A stretch of 64,000 nucleotides of DNA from Mustelus asterias (lineage: Eukaryota): positions 9,672,001-9,736,000 of the forward strand of contig NC_135809.1 of the NCBI RefSeq assembly GCF_964213995.1. Direction: 5' to 3'. The notes under the pieces were generated by a model. It did no database searches, was not told the origin of the DNA, and was given only the letters and a program-made list of their open reading frames with translations. Shown in pieces: positions 3,447 to 60,534 of the stretch (position 1 is the first letter of the stretch; every line of letters starts with the position of its first letter). A program made the translations under genes and the position numbers.

Positions 3447-4487
3447 TTGTTGAACTGTCCCTATATTCCTTGCTCTCCAGAAATCTAGATGTCTCAGTTT
3501 TGAATAAACTTAATTTCTGAACTTCTACAGGCAATTCACACACACTCAATTTTACAAACTTCAATGCGTTGCAAACCAGATCTAGTTATACTTCTTCAAG
3601 TAGACCTTCCTGGTTTAAGCGCACGTACTGACATCTCTGCAACACCGCATTGCCACAGGAACAGAGATCTTCCAGCACAGAAGGAGGCCATTCAGCCCAT
3701 TGTGCCTGAAGAAATGGCAGCACCCTCGGAAGAGAGTAGGCCATTCCATCCTTAAGGTCTACCTTTCCCCATTTAATTATATTGTGGCAGATGTGTACTC
3801 CATCTAAAATTACTTACCTTAGCTCAAAATGCCCACCCGTCCCTTTAATACCATTATTCAGTAGAATATATTTTTGTCTTAGCTTTGATAATTTCAGTTT
3901 ACCCTCAGCATCCACAGGTTTTCCAGGAGAGCATTCTGAATTTATGCTACCAATTCCATGAAAATGTGCTTCTGATTTGCCTGTTTCCTGGTGAAAGATA
4001 AAAATGGGTCTCCTTCAGAAGCCTCACAAACAGCTCTTGGGAGCTTGCAACCAACATCAAAATATTAGTCTGACAGGCACTTGAACACCACCGGATCCAC
4101 CATATGAACTCACCCCAAGAGAATTGTGATTGCTTTGTTCATCTGCAAATGTTTTTGAGCTAGGATCATTAAAAAAAAATCTCTGGGAGAAACATTTTTC
4201 ATATAAAAGTCTTGCAAAAATGCAGAGTGCCCGCTTCCGGATGCTACTTAATATTTGTAACAGCACCTTCAGTTTTTTAAAATGTTTTTTTATTAGTGTC
4301 ACAAGTAGGCTCAGTTTAACACTGCAATGAAGTTACTGTGAAAATCCCCTAGCCGCCGCATTCCGGCACCTGTTTGGGTACACTGAGGGGGAATTTAGCA
4401 TGGCCAATGCACCTAACCAGCACGTCTTTCAGATTCAGTAAGAAATCTCACAACATCAGGTTAAAGTCCAACAGGTTTATTTGGTAG

Positions 4488-4522
4488 CGCGAGCTTTCGG
4501 AGCGTTGCCCCTTCATCAGGTG
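4488..4522 (-). ncRNA. minimal type I hammerhead ribozyme motif (PLE terminal repeat)
   Basis: CAC-CUGAUGA-A-GGGGC-AAC-GCUCC-GAAA-GC-UC-GCG; one stem I mismatch. Confidence 0.65.
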
Positions 4523-5268
4523 ATTGGAGAGTTGGGTTCACAAACAGGGCATATATAGGCACAGACTCAATTGCAAGATAATGGTTGGAATGCGAGTCTT
4601 AACAGGTAATCAAGTCTTTACAGGTGCAGACAATGCGAGTGGAGAAAGGGTTAAGCACAGGTTAAAGATGTGTGAATTGCCTCAAACCCGAATAGTTAGT
4701 AAGATTTTGCAAGCCCAGACAAGTCGTGGGGGTTACAGATAGTGTGACATGAACCCAAGATCCCGGTTGAGGTCTTCCTCATGTGTGCGGAACTTGGCTA
4801 TCAGTCTCTGCTCAGCGACTCTGCGCTGTCGTGTGTCTTGAAGGCTGCCTTGGAGAACACTTACCCGAAGATCAGAGGCTGAATGCCCTTGGCTGCTGAA
4901 GTGATCCCCAACAGGAAGGGACAACTCCTTCCTGGTGATCGTCAAGCAGTGTCCATTCATCCGTTGTCGTAGCATCTGCATGGTCTCGTCGATGTACCAT
5001 GCCTCGGGACACCCTTTCCTGCAGCGTATCAGGTAGACAATGTTGGCCGAGTCTCAAGAGTATGTACCATGTACCTGGTGGATGGTGTTCTCACGTGAGA
5101 TGATGGCATCCGTGTCCACAACTCTTTAACCTGTGCTTAACCCTTTTTCCATTCACATTGTCTGCACCTGTAAAGACTCGATTACCTGTCAAGACTTGCA
5201 TTCCAACCATTATCTTGTAATTGAGTCTGTGTCTATATATGCCCTATTTGTGAACCCAACTCTCCACT

Positions 5269-5303
5269 CACCTGATGAAGGGGCAGCGCTCCGAAAGCTC
5301 ATG
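5269..5303 (+). ncRNA. minimal type I hammerhead ribozyme motif
   Basis: CAC-CUGAUGA-A-GGGGC-AGC-GCUCC-GAAA-GC-UC-AUG; first stem I pair mismatched. Confidence 0.6.
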
Positions 5304-5882
5304 CTACCAAATAAACCTGTTGGACTTTAACCTGGTGTTGTGAGACTTCTTACTGTGCTTACCCCAATCCAACGCCGGCATCTCCACATCATGTCTTTCA
5401 GATTGTGGGAGAAAACCAGAGCACCCGGAGCAAACCCACGCCAGACACAGGGAGAACATGCAGTCTCCGCACAGATAATGACCCAAGTCGGGAATTGAAC
5501 TCAGGTCCTTGGTGCTGTGAGGCAGCAGTGCTAACTGCAGTGTCACCATGCCACCCCATAACTAAAATATAGTTGCTGCCTCTTTGAAGGAACTAGCCAA
5601 TTCAGTCCCAAACCTTTTCCCCATGGCCTCGCAAATTAGTTGTCTTTATAGGGGTGTGCAGTTTCCTTCGAGACGTTCCAATGGATTCTGATACTACTAG
5701 GTTTGTTTCTTCTGCCAGCTCCCCACACCTATCCTCCTGCATATGTCCCTCCTCACACCTGTCCCTCCTTCACTTATTCCATCCTCACATCTCCCCCTCA
5801 CCTATCCCTCCCTCCCCTGACCCTCCCTCACCAGTCCTTCCCTCCTTCCCTCCCTGCCCCTTCCCTCCATCTGATATCCACT

Positions 5883-5919
5883 CCATCTGACGAAGGAGCA
5901 GCACTCCGAAAGCTAATGG
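5883..5919 (+). ncRNA. minimal type I hammerhead ribozyme motif, variant with covaried stem I
   Basis: CCAU-CUGACGA-A-GGAG-CAGCA-CUCC-GAAA-GC-UA-AUGG, within a PLE terminal fragment ending ~5980. Confidence 0.7.
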
Positions 5920-5980
5920 CATTTGCTACCAAATAAACCTGTTGGACTTTAACCTGGTGTTGTTAAAACTCTTACTGTGC

Positions 5981-8900
5981 CTTCCCTCCCCACCAGTCCT
6001 TCCCTCCCTCCCTGCCCCCTTCCCTCCCCACCAGTTCCTCCCTCCCTCCCTCCCCTGTCCTTCCCTCCCTCCCTCCTTCACCTGTCCCTCCCTCCCTCGT
6101 CCCTCACCTGTCCCTCCCTCCCTCACCTGTCCCTCCCTCCCTCCCCTGTCCCTCCCTCCCTCCCCTGTCCCTCCCTCCCTCCCTCACCTGTCCCTCCCTC
6201 CCTCACCAGTCCCTCCCTCCCTCACCAGTCCCTCCCTCCCTCCCTCACCAGTCCCTCCCTCCCTCCCTCACCTGTCCCTCCATCCCTCCCTCACCTGTCC
6301 CTCCATCCCTCCCTCACCTGTCCCTCCATCCCTCCCTCACCTGTCCCTCCCTCCCTCCCTCACCTGTCCCTCCCTCACCTGTCTCTCCCTCCCTCCCTCA
6401 CCTGTCTCTCCCTCCCTCCCTCACCTGTCTCTCCCTCCCTCCCTCACCTGTCTCTCCCTCCCTCCCTCACCTGTTTCTCCCTCCCTCCCTCACCCCCTCA
6501 CCTGTCCCTTCCTCCCTCACCTGTCTCTCCATCACTCCCTCACCTGTCCCTCCCTCACCTGTCCCTCCCTCCCTCACCTGTCCCTCCCTCACCTGTCTCT
6601 CCCTCCCTCCCTCACCTGTCCCTCCCTCCCTCCCTCACCTGTCCCTCCCTCCCTCCCTCACCTGTCTCTCCCTCCCTCCCTCCCTCACCTGTCTCTCCCT
6701 CCCTCCCTCACCACCTCACCTGTCCATCCCTCCCTCACCTGTCCCTCCATCCCTCCCTCACCTGTCCCTCCATCCCTCCCTCACCTGTCCCTCCATCCCT
6801 CCCTCACCTGTCCCTCCATCCCTCCCTCACCTGTCCCTCCCTCACCTGTCTCTCCCTCCCTCACCTGTCTCTCCCTCCCTCACCTGTCTCTCCCTCCCTC
6901 CCTCACCTGTCTCTCCTTCCCTCCCTCACCCCCTCACCTGTCCCTTCCTCCCTCACCCTGTCTCTCCATCACTCCCTCACCTGTCCCTCCCTCCCTCCCT
7001 CACCGGTCCCTCCCTCACCGGTCCCTCCCTCCCTCACTCACCTGTCTCTCCCTCCCTCACCTGTCTCTCCCTCCCTCCCTCCCCTGTCTCTCCCTCCCTC
7101 CCTCCCCTGTCTCTCCCTCCCTCCCTCACCTGTCTCTCCCTCCCTCCCTCACCTGTCTCTCCCTCCCTCCCTCCCTCACCTGTCTCTCCCTCCCTCCCTC
7201 ACCTGTCTCTCCCTCCCTCCCCTGTCTCTCCCTCCCTCCCTCACCCCCCCTTCCTCCCTCACCTGTCCCTCCCTCCCTCCCTCCCTCACCGGTCCCTCCC
7301 TCACCGGTCCCTCCCTCCCTCCCTCACCGGTCCCTCCCTCACCTGTCCCTCCCTCACCTGTCCCTCCCTCACCGGTCCCTCCCTCCCTCCCTCACCTGTC
7401 CCTCCCTCCCTCACCTGTCCCTCCCTCCCTCACCTGTCCCTCCCTCATCTGTCTCTCCCTCCCTCCCTCACCTGTCTCTCCCTCCCTCCCTCACCTGTCT
7501 CTCCCTCCCTCCCTCACCTGTCTCTCCCTCCCTCCCTCACCTGTCTCTCCCTCCCTCCCTCACCTGTCTCTCCCTCCCTCCCTCACCTGTCTCTCCCTCC
7601 CTCCCTCACCTGTCTCTCCCTCCCTCACCTGTTTCTCCCTCCCTCCCTCACCTGTCTCTCCCTCCCTCCCTCCCTCACCTGTCTCTCCCTCCCACCCTCA
7701 CCTGTCTCTCCCTCCCTCCCTCACCTGTCTCTCCCTCCCTCCCTCACCTGTCTCTCCCTCCCTCCCTCACCTGTCTCTCCCTCCCTCCCTCACCTGTCTC
7801 TCCCTCCCTCCCTCACCTGTCTCTCCCTCCCTCCCTCCCTCACCTGTCTCTCCCTCCCTCCCGTTTCTCCCTCCCTCCCCTGTCTCTCCCTCCCTCCCTC
7901 ACCTGTCCCTCCCTCCCTCACCTGTTTCTCCCTCCCTCCCTCACCTGTTTCTCCCTCCCTCCCTCACCTGTCTCTCCCTCCCTCCCTCCCTCACCTGTCT
8001 CTCCCTCCCTCCCTCATCTGTCTCTTCCTCCCTCCCTCATCTGTCTCTCCCCCCCTCCCTCACCTGTCTCTCCCTCCCTCCCTCACCTGTCTCTCCCTCC
8101 CTCCCTCACCTGTCTCTCCCTCCCTCCCTCACCTGTCTCTCCCTCCCTCCCTCACCTGTCTCTCCCTCCCTCACCTGTTTCTCCCTCCCTCCCTCACCTG
8201 TTTCTCCCTCCCTCCCTCCCTCACCTGTCTCTCCCTCCCTCCCTCCCTGCCTCACCTGTCTCTCCCTCCCTCCCTCACCTGTCTCTCCCTCCCTCCCTCA
8301 CCTGTCTCTTCCTCCCTCCCTCACCTGTCTCTCCCTCCCTCCCTCACCTGTCTCTCCCTCCCTCCCTCACCTGTCTCTCCCTCCCTCCCTCACCTGTCTC
8401 TCCCTCCCTCCCTCACCTGTCTCTCCCTCCCTCCCTCACCTGTCTCTCCCTCCCTCCCTCACCTGTCTCTCCCTCCCTCCCTCACCTGTCTCTCCCTCCC
8501 TCCCTCCCTCCCTCACCTGTCTCTCCCTCCCTCCCTCCCTCACCTGTCTCTCCCTCCCTCCCCTGTTTCTCCCTCCCTCCCCTGTCTCTCCCTCCCTCCC
8601 TCACCTGTCTCTCCCTCCCTCCCTCACCTGTCTCTCCCTCCCTCCCTCACCTGTCTCTCCCTCCCTCCCTCACCTGTCTCTCCCTCCCTCCCTCACCTGT
8701 CTCTCCCTCCCTCCCTCACCTGTCTCTCCCTCCCTCACCTGTCTCTCCCTCCCTCACCTGTCTCTCCCTCCCTCCCTCACCTGTCTCTCCCTCCCTCCCT
8801 CACCTGTCTCTCCCTCCCTCCCTCACCTGTCTCTCCCTCCCTCCCTCACCTGTCTCTCCCTCCCTCCCTCACCTGTCTCTCCCTCCCTCCCTCACCTGTC

Positions 8901-10165
8901 TCTCCCTCCCTCCCTCACCTGTTTCTCCCTCCCTCCCTCCCTCCCTCACCTGTTTCTCCCTCCCTCCCTCCCTCCCTCACCTGTTTCTCCCTCCCTCCCT
9001 CACCTGTCTCTCCCTCCCTCCCTCCCTCACCTGTTTCTCCCTCCCTCCCTCACCTGTTTCTCCCTCCCTCCCTCACCTGTCTCTCCCTCCCTCCCTCCCT
9101 CACCTGTCTCTCCCTCCCTCCCTCATCTGTCTCTTCCTCCCTCCCTCACCTGTCTCTCCCTCCCTCCCTCACCTGTCTCTCCCTCCCTCCCTCACCTGTC
9201 TCTCCCTCCCTCCCTCACCTGTCTCTCCCTCCCTCCCTCACCTGTCTCTCCCTCCCTCACCTGTCTCTCCCTCCCTCACCTGTTTCTCCCTCCCTCCCTC
9301 ACCTGTTTCTCCCTCCCTCCCTCCCTCACCTGTCTCTCCCTCCCTCCCTCCCTGCCTCACCTGTCTCTCCCTCCCTCCCTCACCTGTCTCTCCCTCCCTC
9401 CCTCACCTGTCTCTCCCTCCCTCCCTCACCTGTCTCTCCCTCCCTCCCTCACCTGTCTCTCCCTCCCTCCCTCACCTGTCTCTCCCTCCCTCCCTCACCT
9501 GTCTCTCCCTCCCTCCCTCCCTCACCTGTCTCTCCCTCCCTCCCTCACCTGTCTCTCCCTCCCTCCCTCACCTGTCTCTCCCTCCCTCCCTCCCTCACCT
9601 GTCTCTCCCTCCCTCCCTCCCTCCCTCACCTGTCTCTCCCTCCCTCCCTCCCTCACCTGTCTCTCCCTCCCTCCCCTGTTTCTCCCTCCCTCCCTCCTGT
9701 CTCTCCCTCCCTCCCTCACCTGTCTCTCCCTCCCTCCCTCACCTGTCTCTCCCTCCCTCCCTCACCTGTCTCTCCCTCCCTCCCTCACCTGTCTCTCCCT
9801 CCCTCCCTCACCTGTCTCTCCCTCCCTCACCTGTCTCTCCCTCCCTCCCTCACCTGTCTCTCCCTCCCTCCCTCACCTGTCTCTCCCTCCCTCCCTCACC
9901 TGTCTCTCCCTCCCTCCCTCACCTGTCTCTCCCTCCCTCCCTCACCTGTCTCTCCCTCCCTCCCTCACCTGTCTCTCCCTCCCTCCCTCACCTGTCTCTC
10001 CCTCCCTCCCTCACCTGTCTCTCCCTCCCTCCCTCACCTGTCTCTCCCTCCCTCCCTCACCTGTCTCTCCCTCCCTCCCTCACCTGTCTCTCCCTCCCTC
10101 CCTCACCTGTCCCTCACTCCCTCCCTCACCTGTCCCTCACTCCCTCCCTCACCTGTCCCTCACTC
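5981..10165. repeat. ~4.2-kb pyrimidine-rich minisatellite, unit about 23 bp CACCTGTCTC(TCCC)nT
   Basis: Directly visible tandem array; unit length varies in steps of 4; it produces the artefactual 1518-aa and 1444-aa Pro/Ser/Leu ORFs. Confidence 0.97.
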
Positions 10166-10197
10166 ATTCACCTGTCCGAACGGCTGGAGCTTTCCCA

Positions 10198-10513: not shown

Positions 10514-10713
10514 NNNNNNNNNNNNNNNNNNNNNNNNNNNNNNNNNNNNNNNNNNNNNNNNNNNNNNNNNNNNNNNNNNNNNNNNNNNNNNNNNNNNNNN
10601 NNNNNNNNNNNNNNNNNNNNNNNNNNNNNNNNNNNNNNNNNNNNNNNNNNNNNNNNNNNNNNNNNNNNNNNNNNNNNNNNNNNNNNNNNNNNNNNNNNNN
10701 NNNNNNNNNNNNN
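10514..10713. other. assembly gap (200 N)
   Basis: Run of N. Confidence 0.99.
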
Positions 10714-10953
10714 GCTCGCATTGTATGCAATACACTTGGCCAAACTCTAAATAGACCAAGGTGCAAATAGTGGAATTGAAGAGGGTTGCAGCGAAAAGTT
10801 GTGTGGATGCTCACAATTCCAGGAGCTCTGGTTTTTCTCCCTGTATTTTTTACAGGAAGAAAAACATTCTCCTCTTAGACAGTGTTACATGAATTGAGCC
10901 ACTGATGTTGCTAACAGCCTAACACCCATCCCTTTTGCCTTTTTTGTTGGTAG

Positions 10954-11095
10954 GGAGGAAGAAGCTATTCAATTAGATGGACTGAATCCTGCTCAAGTTA
11001 AAGAAATCAGGGAAAAGGCTGAAAAGTTTATGTTCCAAGCAGAAGTTAACAGGATGATGAAGTTGATCATTAATTCTCTGTACAAGAACAAGGAG
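10954..11095 (+). CDS. HSP90B1: endoplasmin/GRP94 exon 3 (first visible exon)
   Basis: AG/GT bounded; [11 protein letters not shown]...[21 protein letters not shown]. Confidence 0.95.
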
Positions 11096-11504
11096 GTAAG
11101 TTGCTTTGAAAAGCTTCACCCCGCTGTTTTGTACTCGAGTTGATTCTGAGACATTTGCCCTAATGATGCTCTTGACTTTCTAAATCTGGCACTTTTGCTG
11201 TACCAAAGCATTTAGAAGTGTTGAATGTTCAACATTCAGTAACTGGCTGCATAATCTATTACAATCTATTATGGATGCAAGGGAAAGACTGATCCACAAA
11301 TACTGTTGGTGATGCCAACCATTGGCTTGTGCCCATTATTTCATGGTAATTGTATGTGGTGTTCTCATAAAACATGATTGATTGTGTTAGAACCACTGAT
11401 TACTGCCATTTGAAGTTCTCAGTTAGGTAGCAAGGTAAAGATCACAAATACCAGTGTATATATATTTGGCTGCAGGATGTTAATTTGATGTTTATTGTTA
11501 TCAG

Positions 11505-11621
11505 ATATTTCTGCGTGAACTGATTTCTAATGCTTCTGATGCTCTGGACAAGATCAGATTGATATCTCTAACAAATGATACCGCACTACATGCTACAGAA
11601 GAGATGACCATTAAGATCAAG
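11505..11621 (+). CDS. HSP90B1: endoplasmin exon 4
   Basis: [18 protein letters not shown], the Hsp90 signature; AG/GT. Confidence 0.96.
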
Positions 11622-12110
11622 GTTTGTTTTCATTCATTTGTCTTTGAAATGTAGTAAAATGCTGCTAGACTAACTGATCACTATTCAGGACTTGGTCAGG
11701 CATTAGACACCATACACAATACAGATTGGCAGGGGTGCTAGCTGAGATATCATGATGCCTGTCATAACATTTGGTGAGTTTGAGTCAGTTCAGGATTTGG
11801 TTCTTTGTTCTACCACTTTTGTGGATGAATACCTGCAAACACACACTCCAATTGTAGAATTGGTTATGTGTGCTGAAACTGCTGTTAACTTGACAAAGTT
11901 ATCTTCCTACCCCTAATATAGTTCACACCTGCCTACGAAGTCTAAATTTGTTCTAATAGCGACTACATTTAATTTAGATATTGTGCACATTGTGGTTTGT
12001 GTGATATTTCAATATGATGGAACAAATCTGGATTATCTGTTTATACAAATGAGAATACAATAATAGTTTGGTGATGGAATGTTTATGCTTGATTTTGTTT
12101 TTTCCCTCAG

Positions 12111-12442
12111 GCTGACAAAGAGAAGAACATGCTACATGTCACTGATACAGGCATTGGCATGACTAAGGATGAACTGATCAAAAATCTTGGCACAATTGCA
12201 AAATCTGGAACAAGTGAATTCTTAAATAAACTGACAGAAATGCAAAGTGATGACCAGTCTTCCTCTGAGCTAATTGGTCAGTTTGGTGTTGGATTCTACT
12301 CTGCTTTCTTGGTAGCAGATAAGGTCATTGTAACATCTAAGCACAACAATGGCACACAGCACATCTGGGAATCTGACTCCAATGAATTTTCAATAATAGA
12401 GGATCCACGAGGAAATACACTAGGACGTGGCACTACTATCAC
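12111..12442 (+). CDS. HSP90B1: endoplasmin exon 5
   Basis: DTGIGMT...[10 protein letters not shown]...[10 protein letters not shown] (GHKL ATPase); AG/GT. Confidence 0.97.
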
Positions 12443-12670
12443 GTAAGTTAAACCTTGCGCGTTCAAATAGTCTGGGCTTAGAACAGTGTTCCTTGATCTA
12501 AGTGGGAGGGGAACATTTGGCTGGTTGGCAGTATTTGTAAAGAGCTTGCAGCTGTTGGCTAACAATCATTAAAATGTGTTGGGGTAATTAATGCTATAAA
12601 GGGGTCAATACTGATTTACAAAATCAAATGTTTGGAATAGTCTAAATTTTCTATGTTCTGTTTACTTTAG

Positions 12671-12782
12671 GTTAGTCTTGAAGGAAGAGGCATCTGACTA
12701 CCTTGAACTGGACACCATCAAAAATCTAATCAAGAAATACTCCCAATTCATTAACTTTCCCATCTATATCTGGAGTAGTAAG
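12671..12782 (+). CDS. HSP90B1: endoplasmin exon 6
   Basis: [12 protein letters not shown]...[15 protein letters not shown]; AG/GT. Confidence 0.95.
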
Positions 12783-12859
12783 GTCAGTGAAATATATAAA
12801 CTTGAACAGTTGAGTGAACTCAACTAATTTCTAAATATAATAAAAGCTTCTCTTAATAG

Positions 12860-12973
12860 ACAGAAACTGTAGAAGAACCAATGGATGAGGAGGAAGCTAA
12901 GGAAAAGGAGGAAACTGATGATGAGGCTGCAGTTGAAGAGGAAGATGAAGAAAAGAAGGCCAAAACTAAGAAG
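12860..12973 (+). CDS. HSP90B1: endoplasmin exon 7 (charged linker)
   Basis: TETVEEPMDEEEAKE...KAKTKK; AG/GT. Confidence 0.93.
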
Positions 12974-13562
12974 GTATGAACATTTTCTGTTAGATAACTG
13001 GTTAGGAAGCTGGAGACATGTCTCCCAGCAATTTGGACTTGGGACTTCAGTATAAGATGACTTGGAAATAAAACTAAATATCCAAGTGTACTAATTAGGT
13101 GGCATTGTAAATAGGAATAATTACTATATTTTCTAATGCTAGAAACCAGAGATTTCGTGGAGTGCTTTTTGTGGGTCCAAGTGCAGAAATCACTAAAGTC
13201 TAGTAGACTGGTACAAAGACATCACCTTTTCAGGAGGGATGTTTAAAAATTTTCATCCACTGCTATTTCATCTAATAGGATATGCCAGAGAAAATGGACC
13301 TAATCTTAGAACTAGATTTTTCAGGAATGCCAAAGCACTGTTCCCCACAGTCGGCCTGATTTATCTCCCAAAAGCTGAGGCTGGATCAAATCTGTTTGAA
13401 AGCCAAGATTGTCATAAATTGTGCAACTGAGGACGTGTAGATGCAAAATCGTGACACAATTTGAGTGCCAGATCAGGTTTGGTGGGTGGGTGGGTGGGGG
13501 GGCTAACTATATAGGTGTGCTGTCTTGTTCCTGGGCTGATTTTTAATTCTCAATTCTTGCAG

Positions 13563-13679
13563 GTTGAGAAGACAGTTTGGGATTGGGAGCTGATGAATGA
13601 CATTAAACCAATCTGGCAGAGACCAACCAAAGAAATAGAAGAAGAAGAATACACTGCTTTCTACAAGACCTTCTCAAAG
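13563..13679 (+). CDS. HSP90B1: endoplasmin exon 8
   Basis: [20 protein letters not shown]...FYKTFSK. Confidence 0.96.
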
Positions 13680-13847
13680 GTTTTAAAAAAATTAGTCTTT
13701 AAGATTGTCTGTTCCCAACTTTTGTAGCCTGTTAGTGACTGTTCTGGAATGAGTGAGCCATAATGAATGCTGTACTAACATTTATGCTGGTGCATGACTG
13801 TAATGTAGTTTCCCTTGTGTATTTACAAAGACTTTTCTCTTTTCCAG

Positions 13848-13985
13848 GATTCTGATGAACCAATAGCACACATCCACTTCACTGCTGAAGGGGAAGTCAC
13901 ATTCAAGTCCATCCTGTTTGTGCCTAAAACTGCACCCCGTGGTTTATTTGATGAATATGGATCAAAGAAATCTGACTTTATTAAG
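13848..13985 (+). CDS. HSP90B1: endoplasmin exon 9
   Basis: [19 protein letters not shown]...KSDFIK. Confidence 0.96.
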
Positions 13986-14408
13986 GTATACTAAGGTTTT
14001 TTAAAAATCATTAGAAATATTGCCTTCAAGTGCTTAACGTAGCAACTTTAACTATGCCAGAATTACTACTAGAACTAGATACTTATTGCCCTAACTTGCA
14101 TCCACCCTTGTCAATGGGAAAGGAACATTTGCAGGTAGTTTCCTGCATGTTAACTAGAAACATTGGATCCAACTAACACCATGTCTGAGGAAAGTTTCAG
14201 TCCTGCTTTTGTGAACCACCAGTTTGTTCTTCCATAGGGGTTGATTCAAATTTCACTGCTATATAGCAAGAATAAAACCTTTCAGAATACAAAGATAGTT
14301 CCTTGCATGATTACCAGCTTATAAGCACATCTCTGTTCTGCTGTGAAATGCATTTCTAACTAATGAACTGGTAGACTTTAACGATTAATCTAAGCTTCTT
14401 TGTTGTAG

Positions 14409-14486
14409 TTGTTTGTTCGTAGAGTGTTCATCACAGATGATTTCCATGACATGATGCCAAAATATCTGAATTTCATCAAGGGTGTA
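14409..14486 (+). CDS. HSP90B1: endoplasmin exon 10
   Basis: [26 protein letters not shown]. Confidence 0.96.
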
Positions 14487-14651
14487 GTAAGTAATCATTT
14501 TTAAATTTGCATTTTACTGCATGCACATGGTGTCTCGCTCGCTTACAAAGGAAGTATGTAATGCCTGAACTTTGCAGGCAAAGTAATCACTGCCATTGCC
14601 CAAATATATGAAATAATTCAGAATCTTCATGTACAGCAAAATCAATTTTGA

Positions 14652-14867
<216 letters not shown>

Positions 14868-15091
14868 TGAATATCTTATGCCCTTAATTCTTAATGATTA
14901 GTAACATTTGAATGTCTTTCAGTATAACTGACTTTTGAGCTCTAGTCTGCCCTTGTGTGGCTTGATATTGACTCTTTCCCCCAGTGCTGAATAATTTGCA
15001 TATCTAGAGAAAATCCAACTTATAATAGTTCTGGTGTCGAAACTTGTTTGCTACATTGAATTTCTAATTTTCCTAATTATCCACCAAATAG

Positions 15092-15361
15092 GTCATTAGA
15101 AAGAAACTAGTACGCAAAACTCTGGACATGATCAAAAAGATTGCAGAAGAGAAGTACGAAGATTCATTCTGGAAGGAATTTGGGACCAACATCAAGTTGG
15201 GTGTAATTGAGGATCACTCCAATAGAACACGTTTGGCCAAATTGCTGCGCTTCCAGTCCTCTCACCATGAATCCAAGCAGACTAGTTTAGAGCAGTACTT
15301 GGAAAGAATGAAGGATAAGCAAGATAAAATCTACTTCATGGCTGGAGCAAACAGACAAGAG
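15092..15361 (+). CDS. HSP90B1: endoplasmin exon 12
   Basis: [13 protein letters not shown]...[29 protein letters not shown]. Confidence 0.97.
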
Positions 15362-15514
15362 GTGAGGTGGCAGATTGTGCTTGGATGATAAACTGTGGGG
15401 GACTCTTCCTTTTGCTAAGTGCATAATGCTACTATGCTGAACAAAATGGGGCGTGTTACTATGAGTTTTGGTTTGAAGTATGGCAAGTAATTAGATACTG
15501 TTTTTGTTTTACAG

Positions 15515-15760
15515 GCTGAATCTTCTCCCTTCGTTGAACGACTTCTGAAGAAAGGTTATGAAGTGTTGTATCTGACAGAGCCTGTAGATGAATATTGTAT
15601 CCAAGCTTTGCCTGAATTTGATGGAAAGCGGTTCCAGAATGTTGCTAAAGAAGGGCTGAAATTTGATGAAAGTGAAAAGGCTAAAGAAAAACATGAAGCA
15701 ATGGAGAAGGAATACGAGCCACTCTTAACCTGGCTAAAGGACAAAGCACTAAAAGATAAA
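15515..15760 (+). CDS. HSP90B1: endoplasmin exon 13
   Basis: [28 protein letters not shown]...ALKDK. Confidence 0.96.
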
Positions 15761-15789
15761 GTATGATTGGTACACAAAGAAATACATAG

Positions 15790-16675
15790 AAACTAGAAGC
15801 AGGAGTAGGCTATTTGGCCTACACCACTTATTTTGAGCATAGATGATTGCATTCAATACTTTAATCTTCCCACCGCCCCCCCCGGCCTGTATCCCTTGAG
15901 CCCCAAGAGCTATATCTAATTTCTGCTTCAACTACTTTGTGGTAGTGAATTCCACATATTTCACCACCCTCTGGGGAAGAAATTTCTTCCCTCAGTTCTT
16001 AAAGGTTTACCCCTTATCCTCAAACTATGATCCTTAGTTTTGGACTCCCCCCACCATTGGAACATTGTTTCTGAATCTACTCTACTCTGTTCACATTTTG
16101 TAAGAGATCCCTTCTCACTCTTGACTCCCAATGAATATAATCCTAACTGACTCCTTGTATGACAGATCTGCCATCCCACAAATCAGTCTGGGAAACCAAA
16201 ACTGCAATACTCCAGGTGTGGCCTCACCAGCACCCTATACAATTGCAGCAAAGTGTCCCATACTCAAATCCTTGTGCTATGAAGACCAACATACCATTTA
16301 CTGCCTGCTGTACCTGCACGCTTGCTTTCAGTGACTGATGCATGAGGACACCAATGTCTGAGTATCTACCCCTCAATTTACATGTTAACTTATTGCTACC
16401 AAAATGGATAACCTCATTTATCCACATTACTGCATATGCTCAAACACAGCCTGTCCAAATCACACTGAAGCATCTCTGCGTCCTCCTTGCAGCTCACCCT
16501 CCCACCCAACTTTATCTGCAAATCTGGAGATAATACATTCAGTTCCCCCTTCCAAATCATTAATATATAATGTGAACAGTTGGGGTCCTGGCAGATCCCT
16601 ATGGAACCCCACTAGTCAGACTGCCAATCAGAAAATGACCCATTTATTGCCAACTCTTTGCTTTCTATCCATGCA
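15790..16675 (-). mobile_element. CR1-type LINE 3' fragment in HSP90B1 intron 13
   Basis: Decayed RT C-terminal peptides (VQVQQAVNGMLVFIAQGFEY) and a CR1 tail. Confidence 0.75.
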
Positions 16676-17576
16676 GTAACATACTGTATTTCATTTGTTT
16701 GTTTGCAGTGTATAACAAACCTAACTTGCAGAACTTTTCTGTAGATGTACATGTCAGAAGGATGACTCAATGCATTCCTAAAGTCAACCTGAACTTGCTG
16801 CTTGTGTGTATAAGTATATGATTCTGGGGAAGGGAAGAAGAGCTTTTTCAAATTTCCAAAGAACACTATGCTAATAAGCAACAACTGAAGGCCTGATTTA
16901 ATAAATCAGGACAGCACCAAATGAGGATGCCTAGAAATTGGGAGCAGATGTAAGCCAACCCTCTTGAGCTTGCTGGCCTCAACTCCCATTCCCCACCTAT
17001 TCTAATAACTTAAACTGTCCACCTTATCAAGCCCCCTCGGGATCTTTAGTGGATTCAGGTCCAACTTTTTCTCAAAATGAACCTTCTCTGAACTGTTAAG
17101 GAGATGGAAACTACAACTGTAGCTGTGATCTCACTAGCACCTATACAAAATCCCTGCTTTTTGTTGCAAGGGGAATGGAATATACTTGACGACATTCTAT
17201 TTGCCTTCCTAATCATTATATCTAGATCCTCTACCTCTACAATCTCTAAATGTTTTACTTGGCAAAGAACAGAATAGGTTCACCTTTACCCACATACACT
17301 CATCTGAGATGTTTGCTCATCCCTTTGCAGACACTCTACCTCCTGACAACTAACTTTCCTATCTCTTTGTCAGTAAATTTAACTGTACCTTTGATCCTTC
17401 ATCCAAGTCATTGATAAATTGTGTATGGCTCGGGCCCAGCACTGATTCTGTGACACTCCTTTTGTCACATCTTGCCAACTTAAATGACCCACTTCTTGGT
17501 GTTGGTACGGATAGAGGATTGATGACTCAAAATTCAGCCTACACCATGAATGATTACTTTGCATAATAACTCTTGA

Positions 17577-17837
<261 letters not shown>

Positions 17838-18128
17838 TAAGTAAGAGTTTTAAAATGACGACATGCCTTTAACATGGTGAAGAATTGTACTTTGCCTTTA
17901 CAGTGCACATTTTTAATTTCCTCCCATTCTTGTTGCTAAATCAAAGGTTATGCTGTAACCTACAAACTGCAGAATGAGCACAACTGATAGCTTGTGGAAT
18001 ATAGTTCAGCAGCTAGCTGAAATGGGGCTGTGCTTCCAAATGCCAATGGAGTGTGTGTTGGTGCAAGAAGGAATGGCTTAGATTAGATTGGTGCATTCTA
18101 TTCTAATCAATCCTATAAATTCTTACAG

Positions 18129-18916: not shown

Positions 18917-19013
18917 GTGGGTATTTAAATCCTGCACATATCCTATAATTCAAGAACCACATTCAGTAGATGGAGTCACAAATTTCTCTTTCTCTTTCCC
19001 CACCAACTTCCAG

Positions 19014-45968: not shown

Positions 45969-46140
45969 GTGGTTTATGTCATGCCTTCTTCCAGTGCAAG
46001 ATGTGCACAGTTTCCTCGGGCCCAGGACAAGGTACATTATTACATCAAGCTAAAGGAATTGCGAAATCATTTGAAGGGCATAAGAACTGCTACAGAGGTC
46101 ACTGAAGTAGAATACTCATTTGACTTGCAAAAAGCTCAAG
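45969..46140 (+). CDS. TDG: TDG coding exon 8
   Basis: [26 protein letters not shown]...[10 protein letters not shown] (SUMO-interacting motif). Confidence 0.96.
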
Positions 46141-48068: not shown

Positions 48069-48197
48069 CGGAAGCAAAGAAAATGGCGATTAAAGAGGAG
48101 AAATATGACCCTGGTTACGAAGCTGCTTTTGGTGGCTCATATATGGAAAAATCCGATGAAAGCAATGGGCAGTGCCATTTTGCTACAACTGAACCAG
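48069..48197 (+). CDS. TDG: TDG coding exon 9
   Basis: AKKMAIKEEKYDPGYEAAFGG (SUMO consensus IKEE). Confidence 0.94.
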
Positions 48198-49807
48198 GTA
48201 AATGTACAATTGATTTCTACAGTGAGCAAATGGCTTGGGATTTTACAGCTTATGTTGATGTGATCTTTTTACTAAGTGCCAAACGGTCTAGTGACCTGCA
48301 GGGAGCTACCATATGTGGATTTTTATCAGTCATATAACTTACAATATCAAAGCAAATGCTGTTAATTTGTTACTAGTATAATTCGAGAGTCAATGAAGGA
48401 AGCGTGCTACCTTCTTCACAGCATCACAATTATTTGCACTTTTAATTAAATAATTATTCTTGAAGAAAGGATACAATCTTTGTTGTGATTCCTAAACCAC
48501 ACTGTGTATACAAACTATGATTCTGGCAGATCTCTGTATAAATAGCCATATAGCTCCCTCCCTGGAATCCATTTGTCTCAGTATGAAATAGTTGAAGAAG
48601 GGTATGAGCAAGGCCCGAATAACCTATCCCTGCTCGTATTTTCTATGGTTGAAAGGAGTAATCCTTGTGAAGTACAAGTTATTTAGAGATTGAAATTGGA
48701 AATTACCAGTTGTCCTTTTGAAAACTCTGCTATTACTACATGTAAGTTGCTACTGTTGGACTAACCTATGTTTTGGAAGTGTTCTAGCCTACTTAGTTTT
48801 TTTAAATGAGTTGGTTTACAACTGCATGCAACAACTTGTATTATTTGGGGATAGTAGGGGACAGAATTCAGTAACCCCAATATAAACAATGTATAAAGGA
48901 TTACAATGCACCATTAAATGCATTATGCAATATAATAATCTGAAGTTGGGTGTGGCATATATTTCACACTATGGCTTGCTTTGTTTAAAATGTCAGGCAA
49001 GTTTTCATCAGATGGAAGTGCAGCGACTAGAGATTGTTGACCAACAAGCAACTTCAGCTTGTCGAAAAGAGTAGAACCAGAGAATGCACCCTGTATTTGA
49101 AGGAGGGTTGAATTCAAAACAAATCTGCAAAAATTATATGTTAGTGAGTGAGCGGTCAGTCTACAGAGCAGATCCTTAGTGAGACTGGCTGATTTAATTC
49201 AGAGTAGTTGGATTTCTTTTGGCAAATAATATTTGAGTTACAGTATATGAATAATTTGAGACATAATGTGGTAAGTACGGAATGGTTGTGGTTGGTTGGG
49301 GGGGTTGCGGTGGGAATGTGATTTTCGACCAATGGCTCCCAAAGTCTCCGCCACAGGGATTTTCCTTGTGTCATTTCTGTATTTGTTGTAGACTAATAAA
49401 TTGCTGACTAATCGTAGTAATTATTCTCTAACAGTGTTGTACTCTGGAGAAAAGCAGAAGTCATGTTAGAGGATCCATGGTCTCAGTTCATTGAGCGATT
49501 CCTATGATGATCTTGTGTTGCAAATGTAGTGCAAAACTTAATGAATTCCATAGTGACTCAAGATGATTTCCTGGTGTTTGTCTTGAAAGAAGATAGGTTC
49601 AAAATGTTTGTACGTTGAAGTTGCAAAAGTTAGTAACATTACAATATTAAATGCTTTCATCTTTGAATTTATATTTTAAACTTCAGTTCAGCATTTTTTG
49701 ATTGCAGTCACATTTACCTAAGCATAGTATTTTGATTATATTTTTGGACCATTTTCAGATTTACTTTACAAAATAGCACCGTCACTTTGATTAAATTTGT
49801 TTTATAG

Positions 49808-49950
49808 CGGCAGCCACCAACTCTGAATTCAACATGGGCTCAAAGTTTTGCCAAGTTCCTGATGGTCAGTGGATGACCCAGTCGTTCGCAGATCAGATTC
49901 CTTCAATCAACAACTATTGCACACAGTCTGAAGAAGGAAATAGTACATAA
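49808..49950 (+). CDS. TDG: TDG last coding exon
   Basis: GQWMTQSFADQIPS...GNST-stop. Confidence 0.92.
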
Positions 49951-50856
49951 TAAATTGACAGGTTTGCAGAATTTCATGTTACTGCAGTTTTAATGCAGTC
50001 TTACAAAGTACTGTACCTCAGTTTTTGAACTGAAGAGGTTTTGGGATAATATTTCTTTTTACCCTAATGTTTTAAGTCTAGAATTGTGCGTAAACGTAAT
50101 GATGTAGTAAAGGTTAGAAAGCTGAATTCTTAAACTTTTAGAATTAAACTTTGCCCAAAATATTTATAGCTGGAAAGAGAAATAGTTTTAAATGAACATT
50201 TCTGGGGTTTTTTTTAAGTGGACAGGTGCTCATTTGATTCCTGTAATATAGTTGGGGGTTTCTTGCGAGTACAGATTCTCTTCTGCCCAAGTGTTTAAAT
50301 TGTAAGGCTGTTAGGTCATTCAGAAATTCTTTCTGTTACTGCTAGCAATAGATTGGGTGCAGTGTAGCCTTTATTGATCTTGGTCAAAGTAGTGGGAGTT
50401 CAGAAACAATCATCGTGTAACATTTCTAACAGAGTTGAAACGATGCTGTTTAAGGTCTTGCTTATTTGAAGCTATTTTAACATTTGCATTTTTCAGGATA
50501 TGTTGAAGTTCTAACAATAGCTGTTTCGATTTCAGACCTGTTCAGCAAACTACTTTAATTTTAAATTTATTAGACCAAAGGGTGCATGTTTTTTTTTAAA
50601 AATCGTATAATGAATACGGGTCCAGGTGTCCATTTGTTTATGCAAATTCAACACTAGATCAGAGCAGTTTCGATTCATTACTTTAAACCCGTTTTGAAAT
50701 GTTGGTGAGGGTGGCAATATGTCGCTTCCCCATAGAAAACTAAAACTAAATTAAGGAAGATGAACTTATTTTTTCCATTGACTGTACTTTTTCACTATGT
50801 ATTTAAGAATAAGGGTGCTACACTGTTGTAAAAACAATAAGCATAAATAATCATGT

Positions 50857-51060
50857 GGAGTTGCCGGCGTTGGACTGGGGTAAGCACAGTAAGTAGTCTC
50901 ACAACACCAGGTTAAAGTCCAACAGGTTTATTTGGTATTGCGAGCTTTCGGAGCATTGCCCCTTCTTCACTCACCTGATGAAGGGGCAACGCTCCGAAAG
51001 CTCATGTTACTAAATAAACCTGTTGGACTTTAACCGGGTGTTGTGAGACTTCTTACTGTC
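50857..51060. mobile_element. palindromic Penelope-derived mini-element in the TDG 3' UTR
   Basis: Inverted arms; direct repeat CATAAATAATCATGT at 50842-50856 and 51061-51075. Confidence 0.88.
50972..51006 (+). ncRNA. minimal hammerhead ribozyme motif, sense to TDG mRNA
   Basis: CAC-CUGAUGA-A-GGGGC-AAC-GCUCC-GAAA-GC-UC-AUG. Confidence 0.6.
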
Positions 51061-55510: not shown

Positions 55511-55531
55511 TGGAAAGAAATGCTTCGTCAT

Positions 55532-55855
55532 ATAGAATCCCTACAGTGCAGGAGGAGGCCATTTGGCCCATCGAGTCTGCACCAATCCCACCCACGGCCC
55601 TATCCCCGTAATCCCACATATTTACCCCGCTAATCCCTCTAACCTATGCATCCTGGGACACTAAGGGAGAATTTAGCAGAGCCAATCAACCTGACCCACA
55701 CATCTTTGGACTGTGGGAGGAAACCGGAGCACCTGGAGGAAACCCACGCAGACACGGGGAGAAGGTACAAACTCCACACAGACCGTGACCCAAGCCGGGA
55801 ATCGGACACGAGTCCCTGGAGCTGTGAGGCAGCAGTGCTAACCACTGTGCCACCC
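55532..55855 (-). mobile_element. HE1-like V-SINE, tail type 1
   Basis: Family match. Confidence 0.88.
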
Positions 55856-56405
55856 ACATCGGCAATGTTCCTCACCCCTCAAGCTCCCAGCTCTAACTTT
55901 TAGGTTATTCCCCGGTTCTGGATTTATACCATCCTATATTTCTAAATTAAGCGTGACTGAAAGTTAGGCAGGAACTGTTTAAAACTGATTTAATCATTAT
56001 TTTTTCCCATTTGTAGAATACATTGCTTTTTAACTTTACCGTTCAAGTACAGAAAAGCAATTACAAAAACTTATTTGCAGTCATTCAAGAAGGTTAAGGA
56101 GATACAAATCAATTTGGTAAGTCATATTTTTACATTATACCAAAATGTAACAAAAACTCCCTCTGCTGAAAGTGGTGAATATTATTGTGCACGACTGCAT
56201 TTTCTCTCCTGATGTAAAAATATTTTCACTGAGTAATACAGAATACCTTTTTAATCTGCTAAACCTCAATTCCATTGCAGTAAGTTCTGCGTCCATTTAG
56301 TTCACAGAAACAGAAGTATGGAGAGTGCATTACTTAGACTGCAGCGTGCCTATGTGCACACTTAATTCGACAAAGAAATAAAAATTCTGTACAGGATAAG
56401 AGCTC

Positions 56406-56578
56406 TTAATTGTTGGGTCGCACCAATCGAAACCGTCCTGTTGGATCAGGAAGATACCATTTTTCCCAGAGATCCACATGCGCAGTGGGATAATCCCAAG
56501 GTTTAAACCTTCCGTTCCAATGTAGTAATTTAGCTTCAGAAAGGAAGTGTTCCGAATATCTGGCATCAGGACTCCAGC
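56406..56578 (-). CDS. GLT8D2: glycosyltransferase 8 domain-containing 2, last exon
   Basis: WSPDARYSEHFLSEAKLLHWNGRFKPWD...DPTGRF-stop; AG acceptor. Confidence 0.93.
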
Positions 56579-56769
56579 CTACAGAAACACAATTGGAAAA
56601 ACGCACTAGAGCTATTCCGTGGCTATAAACTTAAAGGAGAAAGACAAGATGTCTTACATTAACTACACAGAGCACTCCTTAAGAGTTCTTCCTGGCACTA
56701 AGTACATTCTATCCTTCAACCCAAATAGAATACCTTTTTAATATCAAACTTTTAAGCCTACTTAAAAGT

Positions 56770-57061
56770 TTATTTAATTAGTATCACAAGTAGGCTTATA
56801 TTAACACTGCAATGAAGTTACTGTGAAAATCCTCTAGTTGCCACACTCCGGCGCCTGTTCGGGTACACTGAGGGAGAATTTAGTATGGCCAATGCAACTG
56901 ACCTGCGCATCTTTGGGACAGTGGGAGGAAATCGGAGCACCCGGAGGAAACCCGGGCAGACACAGAGCGAGTGTGCAAACTCCACACAGACAGTGACCAA
57001 GCCAGGAATGGAACCCAGGTCCCTGGCACTGTGAGGCAGCAAGTGCTAACCACTGTGCTGC
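56770..57061 (-). mobile_element. HE1-like V-SINE, tail type 2
   Basis: Family match. Confidence 0.87.
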
Positions 57062-58483
57062 TTCACTATTGCCCCACTTGTGACACTAATAAATAAATGT
57101 TGAACTTTGTCTATGTTCTTGAGGTTCTGTCCTGCAGGTATGTGTTTGTCAAGACTTTAATTCTGCCCATGACTTTGCTGGTGAATTCATGGTAATTGTG
57201 GAGTTTTCCTCTTGCAGCACACGTCTTCAACAAAGAACAAAGAAAATTACAGCGCAGGAACAGGCCCTTCGTCCCTCCAGGCCTGGACCGACCATGCTGC
57301 CCGACTTAACTAAAACCCCCTACCCTTCTGGGGACCATATCCCTCTATTCCCATCCTATTCATGTACTTGTCAAGACAAGTCACTAAAATCACTACCGTA
57401 TCCACTTCCACTACCACCCCCAGCAAAGAGTTCCAGGCACCCACTACTCTGTGTAAAAGATCTGCCTCGTACATCTCCTTTAAACCTTCAGAGAATGTTT
57501 CTCAGGCTTTGATTAATTTCTCACCATAATATTAAGTCTTGTGCTATAAATACATCCAGTATTTAATTCTTATTGGGTTGCTAAAGTTGTCAAAGATTGG
57601 GGGACTCTATTTAATTTCAGGCTAAGAGCTCTAAAGGAGCGAATTATGGCAGAATGCAAAACAGTTTTTAGAAAGTGTAATGTCTGCGTATATTGAGGTC
57701 ATTTTGATTTTACTAAGAAACGGATAGATTAAAATAGCAACAGTCCCAAAACAGCCCATTTGTCGTGCTTTGCACAGTTCCCTGTTCTTCGCAGGAATTA
57801 TATTTTGCTTCCTGCTCCATGTCTCTAACTCATCCGTTGCCAATGTGCAACCTTATCAAAAGCTTTCTGAAAATCCAAGTATAGAATACAAACTGCATTC
57901 TCCTTTTGACCATGTTAGTAATGTTGGTTTATTAAGAAGGAAATCTTGTTAATTTAACATGCCTCCCTTCATTGCTTTTTAATAACTAATGTTTTCCACG
58001 TGTTCATCCAGAAGACTGTTCCAAATATTTTTTAAGCACTTTTTTTTTTAAGCACATTCAAAGAAGTGCGAGTTAGGTGGATTGGCCATGCTAAATTGCC
58101 CCTCAGTGAGCCAGGAATGTGTGGTGGGATTAGTGGGGGTAGATACATAGGGTTATGGGGATAGGGCCTGGGTAAGATGGTCTGTCAGAGATTTGGTGCA
58201 GAGTTGATGGGCTGAATGGCCTTCTAAGCGATGGAACGGGAAATCCATTGCATGAATGTAACAGTTAAAATTGGGGTCAATTTCTGTCTTCACTGTTTGG
58301 TCAGTCTGGTGGAACAAACTGCAGTTACTTTACAAGCTCAAGTTACTTTTTCAGAACTCGCCCAATGTGATTTCAGTTGATTAGAATGGAGTAAAAGCCG
58401 TGGTGGGTTGCATAAAGGGTGGACAATCCACTCCACTGGCCGAGGCAGCGAGGACAACCTCAGCCCCATTATAAAGTTAAAGT

Positions 58484-58724
58484 TTATTTATTAGTCACAA
58501 GTAAGGCTTACATTAACACTGCAATGAAGTTACTGTGAAATTCCCCTAGTCACCACAGTACGGCGCCTGTTTGGGTCAATGCACCTAAACCAGCACGTCT
58601 TTCAGACTGTGGGAGGAAACCCACTCAGACAACATGCAAACTCCATACAGACCAAGCCAGGAATCGAACCCAGGTCCCTGGCGCTGTGAAGTAGCAGTCC
58701 TAACCACTGTGCTACCGTGCTGCC
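58484..58724 (-). mobile_element. HE1-like V-SINE, tail type 2, internally deleted
   Basis: Family match. Confidence 0.82.
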
Positions 58725-58905
58725 TTGTATAAAAGAACTGCAGGGGCTACGGGAGTATTTTGATCTGTTCCAATCTGAATTACATAGTCAGGGTTCCCAA
58801 GTCAGATCCAAGGTGATAAAAATCTAACTGAACTGCTCAGTAAAGTGTCCTTTTCATCTCCCTGTCTTTAAAAAACAAACAGACAGAGCATGGGGAGACT
58901 CTTAC

Positions 58906-59018
58906 CCAGGTGCCGAATGTGCCATAGTGGGTTCAATTGCGAGTGTTTATTGTGAAATACAATTAACATTGGAGGGGTCACCACTCCTTCAGCTAGTGCA
59001 CTGCTGTAGAGATTCTCC
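58906..59018 (-). CDS. GLT8D2: GLT8D2 penultimate exon
   Basis: ENLYSSALAEGVVTPPMLIVFH...PLWHIRHLG; AG/GT. Confidence 0.93.
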
Positions 59019-59448
59019 CTATAAAAGAATAGAAATACACATGAGTGAGTGAGAATAGTATACTGACAACACTCGTATACTGATAAGAGATACAAAACCT
59101 TGCTCTGACAACAATATAGAAGAATGCACCATGCAAAATAGCAAATACATCACAGCGAGTGTTAAACAATCAAATTCTCATCCGATGGTTCAAATCCCTC
59201 CGCGGCCCCATCCATCCCTATCACTATAGCCTCCTCAACAACTGAGAAGGACAAGGGCGGTAAATGTATGGAAACACTACCAGTTGCAAGTTCCCCTCCG
59301 GGCCCCGCACCATCCTGACTTGGAATATATCGCCATTCCTTCACTGTCGCTGGGTCAAAATCCTGGAACTCCCTCCCTAACAGCACCTAAACCACATAAA
59401 AGGCAATGGCTCAAGAAGGTGGCGCACCACCACCTTCTTGAGGGCAAT

Positions 59449-59794
59449 GCGGCGGCACGGTGGCATAGTGGTTAGCACTGCTGCCTCACGGCGCCAGGGA
59501 CCCGGGTTCAATTCCAACCTCTGATCACTGTCTGTGTAGAGTTTGTACATTCTCCCTATGTCTGGGTGCTCCGGTTTCCTCCCACACTCCAAACATGTGT
59601 AGGTTAGGTTGATTGGCTATGCTATATTGTCCCTTGCTGTCCCAAAATGTGTACAATAGGGGGATTAGTGAGGTAAATATGTGGGGTTGCGAGGATAAGG
59701 TGGGGAGTGTGGGCTTGGGTAAGATGCTCTGTCAGAGAGTTAGTGCAGACTCAATGGGCCGAATGGCTTCCTTCTGCATTGTAGGGATTCTATG
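59449..59794 (+). mobile_element. HE1-like V-SINE nested in a LINE 3' fragment (~59170-59860)
   Basis: The LINE tail resumes after the SINE. Confidence 0.82.
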
Positions 59795-59906
59795 AATTAG
59801 GAATGGGCAATAAACATTAACCTAACCAGCGACACCCACATTCCGTGAAAAAATGAAAAGCCCTCCAATTCTGGCACATCCGAAGTTCCTTTGCTCCAAT
59901 ATTGGT

Positions 59907-60111
59907 GATGTGGAGATGCCGGCGTTGAACTGAGGTGGGCACACAGTAAGAAGTCTCACAACACCAGGTTAAAGTCCAACAGGTTTATTTGGTCTGACGA
60001 GCTTTTGGAGCGTTGCTCCTTCATCAGGTGACTCAGCTGATGAAGGAGCAGTGCTCCAAAAGCTCGTCATACCAAATAAAGCTGTTGGACTTTAACCTGG
60101 TGTTGTGGGAC
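59907..60111. mobile_element. palindromic Penelope-derived mini-element with two mutated hammerhead motifs
   Basis: TSD CTCCAATATTGGT at 59894-59906 and 60112-60124; inverted arms. Confidence 0.88.
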
Positions 60112-60534
60112 CTCCAATATTGGTACCCATAGCTTCAGCTGCCTTCGATTCTAAGCTATAGAATTTCCCACTTAAATCTCGCTTGAGTTTCTACCTCCTC
60201 CTTTAAGATGCATCTTAAAACCTACATAATCCTTTACTTGTCTGAATATCTCCATATCTGACTCAGTGTCAAATTCTGCCTGCTAAGACCCCTGTGAAGT
60301 GTATTGGGATGTTACACTATGTTAAAAGACACAAATTATTGCCATATGAAATATTGTAAGCATTGTTAACAAAACAGAAAATATATAAAAGGTAAATAGA
60401 CAGGACACACCCTGCCTGATATTTTTAAAGACATATTTAAACTATTCTGGATTAAATCAATAGTTGCAAGATTCAGAATTTTCAGATGTTTGGAATGAGA
60501 GCTGAGGGGCACAATTACCCTGGTAAGTTGTGAA

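Follow-up and report, generated by a model that had tools for sequence, protein, structure and literature searches.

What are the hammerhead-bearing repeats scattered along a 64,000-nt stretch of the shark Mustelus asterias genome (NC_135809.1, 9,672,001-9,736,000; called the window below), and how were they inserted? A sequence-only reading of the window had proposed an abundant, self-propagating family of retrozyme-like mini-elements derived from Penelope. The repeats are instead the truncated ends of one very abundant shark Penelope-like element (PLE), and not a separate mini-element family. We consider it likely that they are 5'-truncated, mostly mirror-image insertions of the terminal repeat of a Neptune PLE, whose protein probably nicks both strands of a symmetric TG-N16-CA target and probably primes two complementary DNAs (cDNAs) on one RNA. 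The account draws on the family itself, its full-length source, a rule of one tail per pair, matched arms, a hotspot of 5' ends and a target motif, all of which the data show.

The Penelope origin given by the sequence-only reading was borne out, and a full-length PLE source was located elsewhere in the genome. This copy, L061, was reached by searching the genome with an endonuclease stub, and has the layout pseudo-long terminal repeat (pLTR), open reading frame (ORF), pLTR and inverted stub. The ORF is 892 aa long and matches the Pfam families RVT_1 (E 6e-10) and GIY-YIG (23.6 bits, cut-off 22.6); a 106-aa endonuclease stub by itself is unrecognised by Pfam. Among named proteins, its nearest matches belong to sharks (82-96% identity) and turtles (42-44%). 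The hallmarks of an endonuclease-bearing (EN+) PLE that were looked for are present: a single ORF with a reverse transcriptase (RT) and, C-terminally, a GIY-YIG endonuclease, pLTRs in partial tandem, an adjacent inverted 5'-truncated copy, and a 37-nt tail, which ends within the ORF start codon. The linker between RT and endonuclease carries CX4CxxC (CHSNLCKTC at 754), a motif found in 47/47 aligned proteins, and by the CX2-5CxxC mark in this linker, shared with Nematis according to PMC8557442, the element classes as a Neptune-type PLE. The EN+ Neptune PLEs of Craig et al. 2021 (PMC8557442) and Arkhipova et al. 2013 (PMC3846280) share the RT with C-terminal GIY-YIG, the CX2-5CxxC linker, partial tandems, adjacent inverted 5'-truncated copies, a 30-40-bp tail that is often one-ended, and TATA/initiator-like motifs in the pLTR.

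In contigs of related organisms, similarity to the element breaks off at L061 positions 2925-2927 and 2962-2963, and these are also the two ends seen in this genome. Several copies (L246-L248, L251, L260, L265, L268, L271) extend 25-230 nt beyond the tail into the ORF start and then stop, which suggests rarer downstream RT starts.

The element is common throughout the 3.68-Gb genome. It contains 178,956 occurrences of a 27-nt pLTR word and 14,676 exact matches of a 28-nt hammerhead core, far above chance, while the reversed control of each gives 0; the word CTGANGA alone is at chance level (46 against 41.1 expected). Unbiased tiles hold 51 insertions in 850 kb, or 61 in 974 kb (2.4% of bases) once the block of the window is added, which corresponds to about one insertion per 16 kb and extrapolates to about 220,000 in the genome. 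That number in one genome is a large natural data set on PLE insertion. The set used here has 168 insertions, 61 from tiles and 107 anchored on the 3' core, with edge cases excluded: simple head-to-head pairs make up 80 of them, single arms another 70, and the remaining 18 are complex. Sizes of 260 bp or less are found for 97 of them, and 57 extend into the ORF.

The head-to-head pairs follow simple rules. The tail is on exactly one arm in 78/80 pairs, one of the others being borderline two-tailed and one unclear, and tail-to-tail pairs with both ends number 0 in the 168-insertion set. Target duplications, mostly 12-14 bp, accompany 71/80 pairs. The arms of a pair match each other in subfamily class (24/24 pairs, shuffle mean 7.9), in loop II variant (9/11 young pairs, shuffle mean 2.5) and in the position of their 5' ends, which correlate with a rho of 0.85 and fall within 15 nt of each other in 49/78 pairs, against 12.7 when shuffled. 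The 5' ends are themselves concentrated: over 17 nt immediately upstream of CUGAnGA they reach a rate of 20.1 per 1000 nt (57/167 arms at risk), and this peak remains in pairs with visible junctions (21/52 at risk). TATA-like and initiator-like motifs lie near the hotspot at promoter spacing, and similar motifs were noted in PLE pLTRs by PMC3846280. Explaining the hotspot by a 3' splice site was set aside, as AG is absent in several subfamilies.

The target is symmetric. Empty targets were rebuilt by midpoint anchoring (exact-end reconstruction had yielded only 12 sites), and TG-N15-17-CA was found centred on the duplication in 63/97 distinct sites, where shifted controls have a mean of 3.1 and a maximum of 5. 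The longer form CTG..CAG is present in 22/97 distinct sites (control 0.3). Among targets from the unbiased tiles 10/18 carry TG-N15-17-CA, against 4.8% of random centres. The TG-CA spacing is 16 in 38/51 targets, and exactly 2 unduplicated nt separate the motif from the ~12-bp duplication in 27/51 on each side. A fresh set of 40 loci was fetched after the motif had been fixed; 30 have duplications and, after repeated targets were merged, 26/28 fit (controls mean 1.5). RNA-DNA pairing at TG/CA was dropped as a way of priming, since the duplication leaves out the ~2 nt that lie between it and the motif. No report of a symmetric TG-N15-17-CA target was found in the literature searched, outside of which Repbase/Dfam entries and supplements may hold such data; passages of PMC2377424, PMC12602865, PMC12910113 and PMC6155905 contribute nothing about targets. 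For Neptune PLEs the available text of PMC8557442 ties the linkers to a microsatellite bias and gives no symmetric target, unlike the TG-N16-CA and ~12-bp duplication of the shark element; and unlike in PMC8557442 and PMC3846280, the one-tail rule is nearly strict in the shark.

A target is repeated in 10/107 sites. The same position inside other repeats was hit independently in four groups of loci (L166/L284/L313, L155/L280/L305/L336, L167/L194 and L197/L278), and one insertion, L343, lies in another pLTR copy.

These observations lead us to suspect the following reaction. The GIY-YIG domains, probably paired, would nick each strand ~2 nt 5' of CA(G), and the resulting ~12-nt 3' overhangs would become the duplication. 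One nick would prime reverse transcription at the end of the tail, inside the ORF start codon, and the other 37 nt upstream. Both cDNAs would head for the same 5' end or stall point of the RNA, often just upstream of the hammerhead at a TATA/initiator-like start, and their 3' ends would be joined through short complementarities into a head-to-head palindrome. The two proposed priming sites, 37 nt apart, match the two in vitro RT starts of a lizard PLE, Poseidon PAc of the green anole (Frangieh et al. 2024, PMC11167929), whose start sites likewise bound the tail and for which cleavage and extension of both strands are described. PAc differs in that it favours AT-rich ATT sites, whereas the shark element has a defined symmetric motif, and in that its ORF starts in stem II, whereas the shark ORF starts at the end of the tail. 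In its most specific form, the proposal is that a paired GIY-YIG nuclease reads palindromic CTG-N16-CAG and makes a 12-nt staggered break, and that one RNA serves two RTs, whose fixed start sites are separated by 37 nt; we regard this version as evenly balanced between right and wrong. Such two-fold symmetric integration is undescribed for retrotransposons in the literature searched. If true, the tail of PLEs, their head-to-head inversion and the duplicated target would all follow from one reaction, for which a defined substrate for reconstitution would be at hand.

Several points weigh against this account. Its nicking, priming and RNA-end steps are deduced from genomic scars, and 70/168 insertions are single arms and 18/168 complex. 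Targets without the motif number 34/97 and include insertions 1 and 5 of the window, two of its three pairs, and the fresh target set represents one junction class of one subfamily group. The matched arms could be due to gene conversion, or to two RNAs that a single source locus produced, and the 2/11 young pairs that are discordant in loop II indicate that two RNAs, or later mutation, do occur. Full-length copies beginning at the hotspot were looked for, and 0/5 near-full-length copies begin at this proposed start site, so RT stalling or a joining bias remain alternatives for the hotspot.

The alternative that survives best is that the mirror arm comes from one nucleic acid folding back, by self-priming of the cDNA or of an antisense template, so that the element is the same but two primers are not needed. 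Self-priming on an antisense template is how head-to-head PLE palindromes are explained in PMC3846280. Folding back accounts for matched arms and correlated ends, and the junctions favour short inverted matches, which overlap in 41/73 abutting junctions. However, a cDNA primed at the tail needs a tailed arm at least as long as the other, yet among 78 pairs the tail-less arm is longer by more than 15 nt in 16 and the tailed arm in 13. One exact junction, present in 338 copies, is also informative: of 70 such copies, 43 have a tailed long arm, 23 a tailed short arm and 4 no tail at all. Because either arm can be longer, and because an identical junction has its tail on either arm, two cDNAs are favoured over one fold-back. 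The symmetric target is not explained by folding back itself, and we judge this alternative unlikely.

The reading of the repeats as a self-copying, retrozyme-like non-autonomous family, in which short units would be transcribed, cleaved as dimers, circularised and re-inserted as units, starts from the hammerhead. That motif is real. It is the minimal type I hammerhead of PLEs, matching the published form, and shares with the metazoan PLE hammerheads of Cervera and de la Pena 2014 (PMC4209133) an extra base between 9 and 10.1, G10.1-C11.1, palindromic 15.2-16.2 and a short stem I. The layout described from the window, CUGAnGA-A-stem II-GAAA-GC-U-H with stem III replaced by an AGCU palindrome, and with AATAAA following, was likewise found. 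An intact core could be parsed in 190 of the 275 arms spanning the motif. Every one of these carries the extra A after A9, and 180 carry GC at 15.2/16.2; H17, at the cut site, is U in 94, A in 58, C in 37 and G in 1. The sequence-only reading had named covariation in stems I and II as a test of the hammerhead, and covariation is present between subfamilies. Stem I alternates between CAC/GTG and CAT/ATG, and stem II occurs as GGAGC/GCUCC, GGGGCU/AGCUCC and GGGGCU/AGCCUC. Over 22 recurrent haplotypes 94.2% of cells are paired and three pairs are changed on both sides (0/500 shuffles as high, slid controls 24-55%), which represents few independent events among related subfamilies. The hammerhead is nonetheless clearly kept in the source elements. 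In the tiles 50/89 arms reach the hammerhead and 21 keep core and stems. Unconstrained folding of monomers and dimers gave no hammerhead fold, which says little for so short a motif.

The palindromes of the window fold into long hairpins (-129 to -147 kcal/mol) with two hammerheads within them, and as these lie head-to-head on opposite strands inside the hairpin, no cis dimer is possible. We read the hammerhead as a selected feature of the parent element that is carried passively, and it is predicted to be buried and idle in the palindromic stumps. PMC4209133 reports low in vitro activity of PLE minimal hammerheads, found mostly as single motifs in truncated PLEs or as opposite-strand pairs 100-700 bp apart, as here; unlike the 4,000-9,000 copies given there for coelacanth and Xenopus, the number in the shark is far higher. 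The available text of PMC4209133 makes no mention of sharks.

The self-copying family could draw on the 97/168 short insertions, many with duplications, on the 338-fold junction, and on the PLE-related tandem retrozymes that bioRxiv 10.64898/2026.07.22.740005 gives for its one sampled cartilaginous fish. Non-LTR retrozymes (PMC7229834 and the same preprint) are likewise ORF-less and PLE-related, with a type I hammerhead and duplications of more than 4 bp. They are, however, head-to-tail tandem monomers that give circular RNA, whereas the shark copies are dispersed, variably truncated and head-to-head. No unit of fixed length was found: 5' ends form a continuum into the ORF, and junctions are re-made with each insertion, with 19/19 pairs that have both ends in the hotspot differing in their junction. 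The recurring junction, besides having its tail on either side, is found in more than one subfamily. Tandems are rare, since two same-strand hammerhead arms occur in only 3/267 insertions (one arm of the case in the window is broken, and no genome-wide array search was made), and the palindromes fold as hairpins. A self-propagating mini-family is thus unsupported, and for the dispersed copies we consider the idea very improbable and largely refuted; a separate retrozyme offshoot elsewhere in the genome is possible.

Very improbable, too, is that the stumps owe their 5' ends to an RNA template cleaved by its own hammerhead, for although the 5'-end rate is raised to 7-9 per 1000 nt around the predicted cut (8.7 and 7.3 on its two sides, against 3.5 just upstream, inside stem II), the main peak lies 30-45 nt upstream of the cut and retains the whole ribozyme, the ends near the cut fall on the AGCT palindrome and AAAT/ATTT matches with several running beyond it, and hammerhead mutants were without effect on in vitro insertion of PAc, for which the ribozyme is unnecessary (PMC11167929).

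The proposed priming of two cDNAs at a doubly nicked symmetric target has to be placed beside what is already in print. Hammerheads in PLEs are published and not new in themselves; PMC4209133, PMC8557442 and PMC3846280 between them describe pLTR hammerheads, truncated copies in inverted orientation and tails on one side. The origin of the tandem and inverted insertions and of the one-sided tail is an open question in PMC8557442 and PMC11167929. The shark element is a known kind of element, to which a validated target motif and insertion rules are added, and the one-tail rule, matched arms and symmetric target open the PLE mechanism to a defined in vitro test.

Within the window, all nine repeat arms claimed by the sequence-only reading were found, but as parts of six insertions and not as nine units:
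4436-5392, both strands: insertion 1, a head-to-head PLE within a short interspersed element (SINE), with an ORF-bearing arm without tail on the minus strand and an inverted pLTR arm with tail on the plus strand
4424 and 5393: the two copies of its 12-bp duplication, GTCTTTCAGATT
4436-4674, minus strand: 3' pLTR of insertion 1, which stops at the end without tail; its hammerhead (4523-4487) keeps the core and has a single mismatch in stem I
4733-5116, minus strand: remnant of the C-terminal GIY-YIG endonuclease of the PLE ORF, with one in-frame stop; its full-length relative L061 has Pfam RVT_1 and GIY-YIG
5117-5392, plus strand: inverted 5'-truncated pLTR of insertion 1, with hammerhead 5268-5304, AATAAA at 5310 and 37-nt tail 5356-5392
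5234-5240 and near 5266, plus strand: putative promoter of this arm, TATA-like and initiator-like (CCACT) respectively
after 5300, plus strand: predicted hammerhead cut of this arm
5869-5979, plus strand: insertion 2, a single no-tail stump in C/T-rich satellite; its hammerhead, 5883-5919, belongs to the subfamily with CCAT/ATGG as stem I
31969-32108, minus strand: insertion 3, a no-tail stump with the only fully paired hammerhead of the window, 32015-32051
32121-32253, minus strand: insertion 4, a stump with tail, from another subfamily, whose hammerhead is broken
50850-51059, both strands: insertion 5, a palindrome with a tailed minus arm cut inside CUGA and a no-tail plus arm with hammerhead 50971-51007; 15-bp duplication
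59906-60111, both strands: insertion 6, a palindrome in which both hammerheads are G12A; 13-bp duplication, target fitting TG-N16-CA

The duplications of 12-15 bp that had been assigned to the single copies are present (12, 12, 15 and 13 bp), but they bound whole insertions and not single arms; the candidate 10-bp duplication of insertion 2 is unreliable, since it lies within the C/T-rich satellite. Most insertions are short, but 4436-5392 cannot be called ORF-less: its minus strand carries the part of the ORF that ends in GIY-YIG. The catalytic core is intact in 5/9 arms, and every stem pair is also kept only in the arm at 32015-32051. Among the others, the arm at 32215 lacks N7 and has GTAA instead of GAAA, the arm at 50942 is interrupted within CUGA, and those at 59998 and 60037 both have G12A. 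Insertions 5 and 6 are palindromes of ~210 bp each. Rfam gave no hammerhead match in the window, and two weak miRNA-like hairpin hits below the gathering score reflect the palindromes. For annotation, such palindromes should be taken as PLE truncations, and not as retrozymes, MITEs (miniature transposable elements with inverted repeats) or microRNA (miRNA) precursors.

Insertions 3 and 4 lie together on one strand at 31957-32265, with a CpG island ~250 bp away; they belong to different subfamilies, and only one has a tail. Three copies of the 12-mer ACTCTCTGGGTA (31957, 32109 and 32254) stand between and around them. This is either one target used repeatedly or another outcome of double priming.

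Five genes or exons were located in the window:
1844-2713, minus strand: DUF4062 exon (Pfam, below cut-off)
10900-19050, plus strand: Hsp90 gene (Pfam family)
22500-25440, minus strand: UQCC6-like gene
33020-49950, plus strand: TDG-like gene (peptide motifs)
56400-62865, minus strand: glycosyltransferase-8 gene (Pfam family)

We take these to be TTC41-like (the DUF4062 exon), HSP90B1-like, UQCC6-like, TDG-like and GLT8D2-like. A UDG family search missed the TDG exons in the window. The repeats had been said to lie inside host genes, which holds for insertion 6 (59906), between two exons of the glycosyltransferase-8 gene; the others are near genes by inferred placement, and none overlaps a located coding exon. 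Insertion 5 lies 0.9 kb past the stop of the TDG-like gene, insertions 3 and 4 upstream of the UQCC6-like coding exon and beside the CpG island, and insertions 1 and 2 between the DUF4062 exon and the Hsp90 gene. Since there is about one insertion per 16 kb, such positions need no special explanation.

The plus arm of insertion 5 gives the first AATAAA (51013) after the one that overlaps the TDG-like stop; an ATTAAA lies at 50143 as well, and the host sequence has an AATAAA of its own at 51190. If insertion 5 is in the 3' untranslated region, it would form ~90 bp of double-stranded RNA.

The window also holds a 4.2-kb C/T-rich minisatellite with a unit of ~23 bp (5980-10177) and a gap of 200 N (10514-10713). 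A second dispersed repeat, which is SINE-like, was seen in at least 15 pieces, including 3188-3445, 23514-23843, 33831-34163, 55529-55854 and 63471-63791, and insertion 1 lies within one such piece. Remnants of a long interspersed element (LINE) reverse transcriptase (Pfam RVT_1) are found at 20870-21295, 29965-31596 and 39505-39798.

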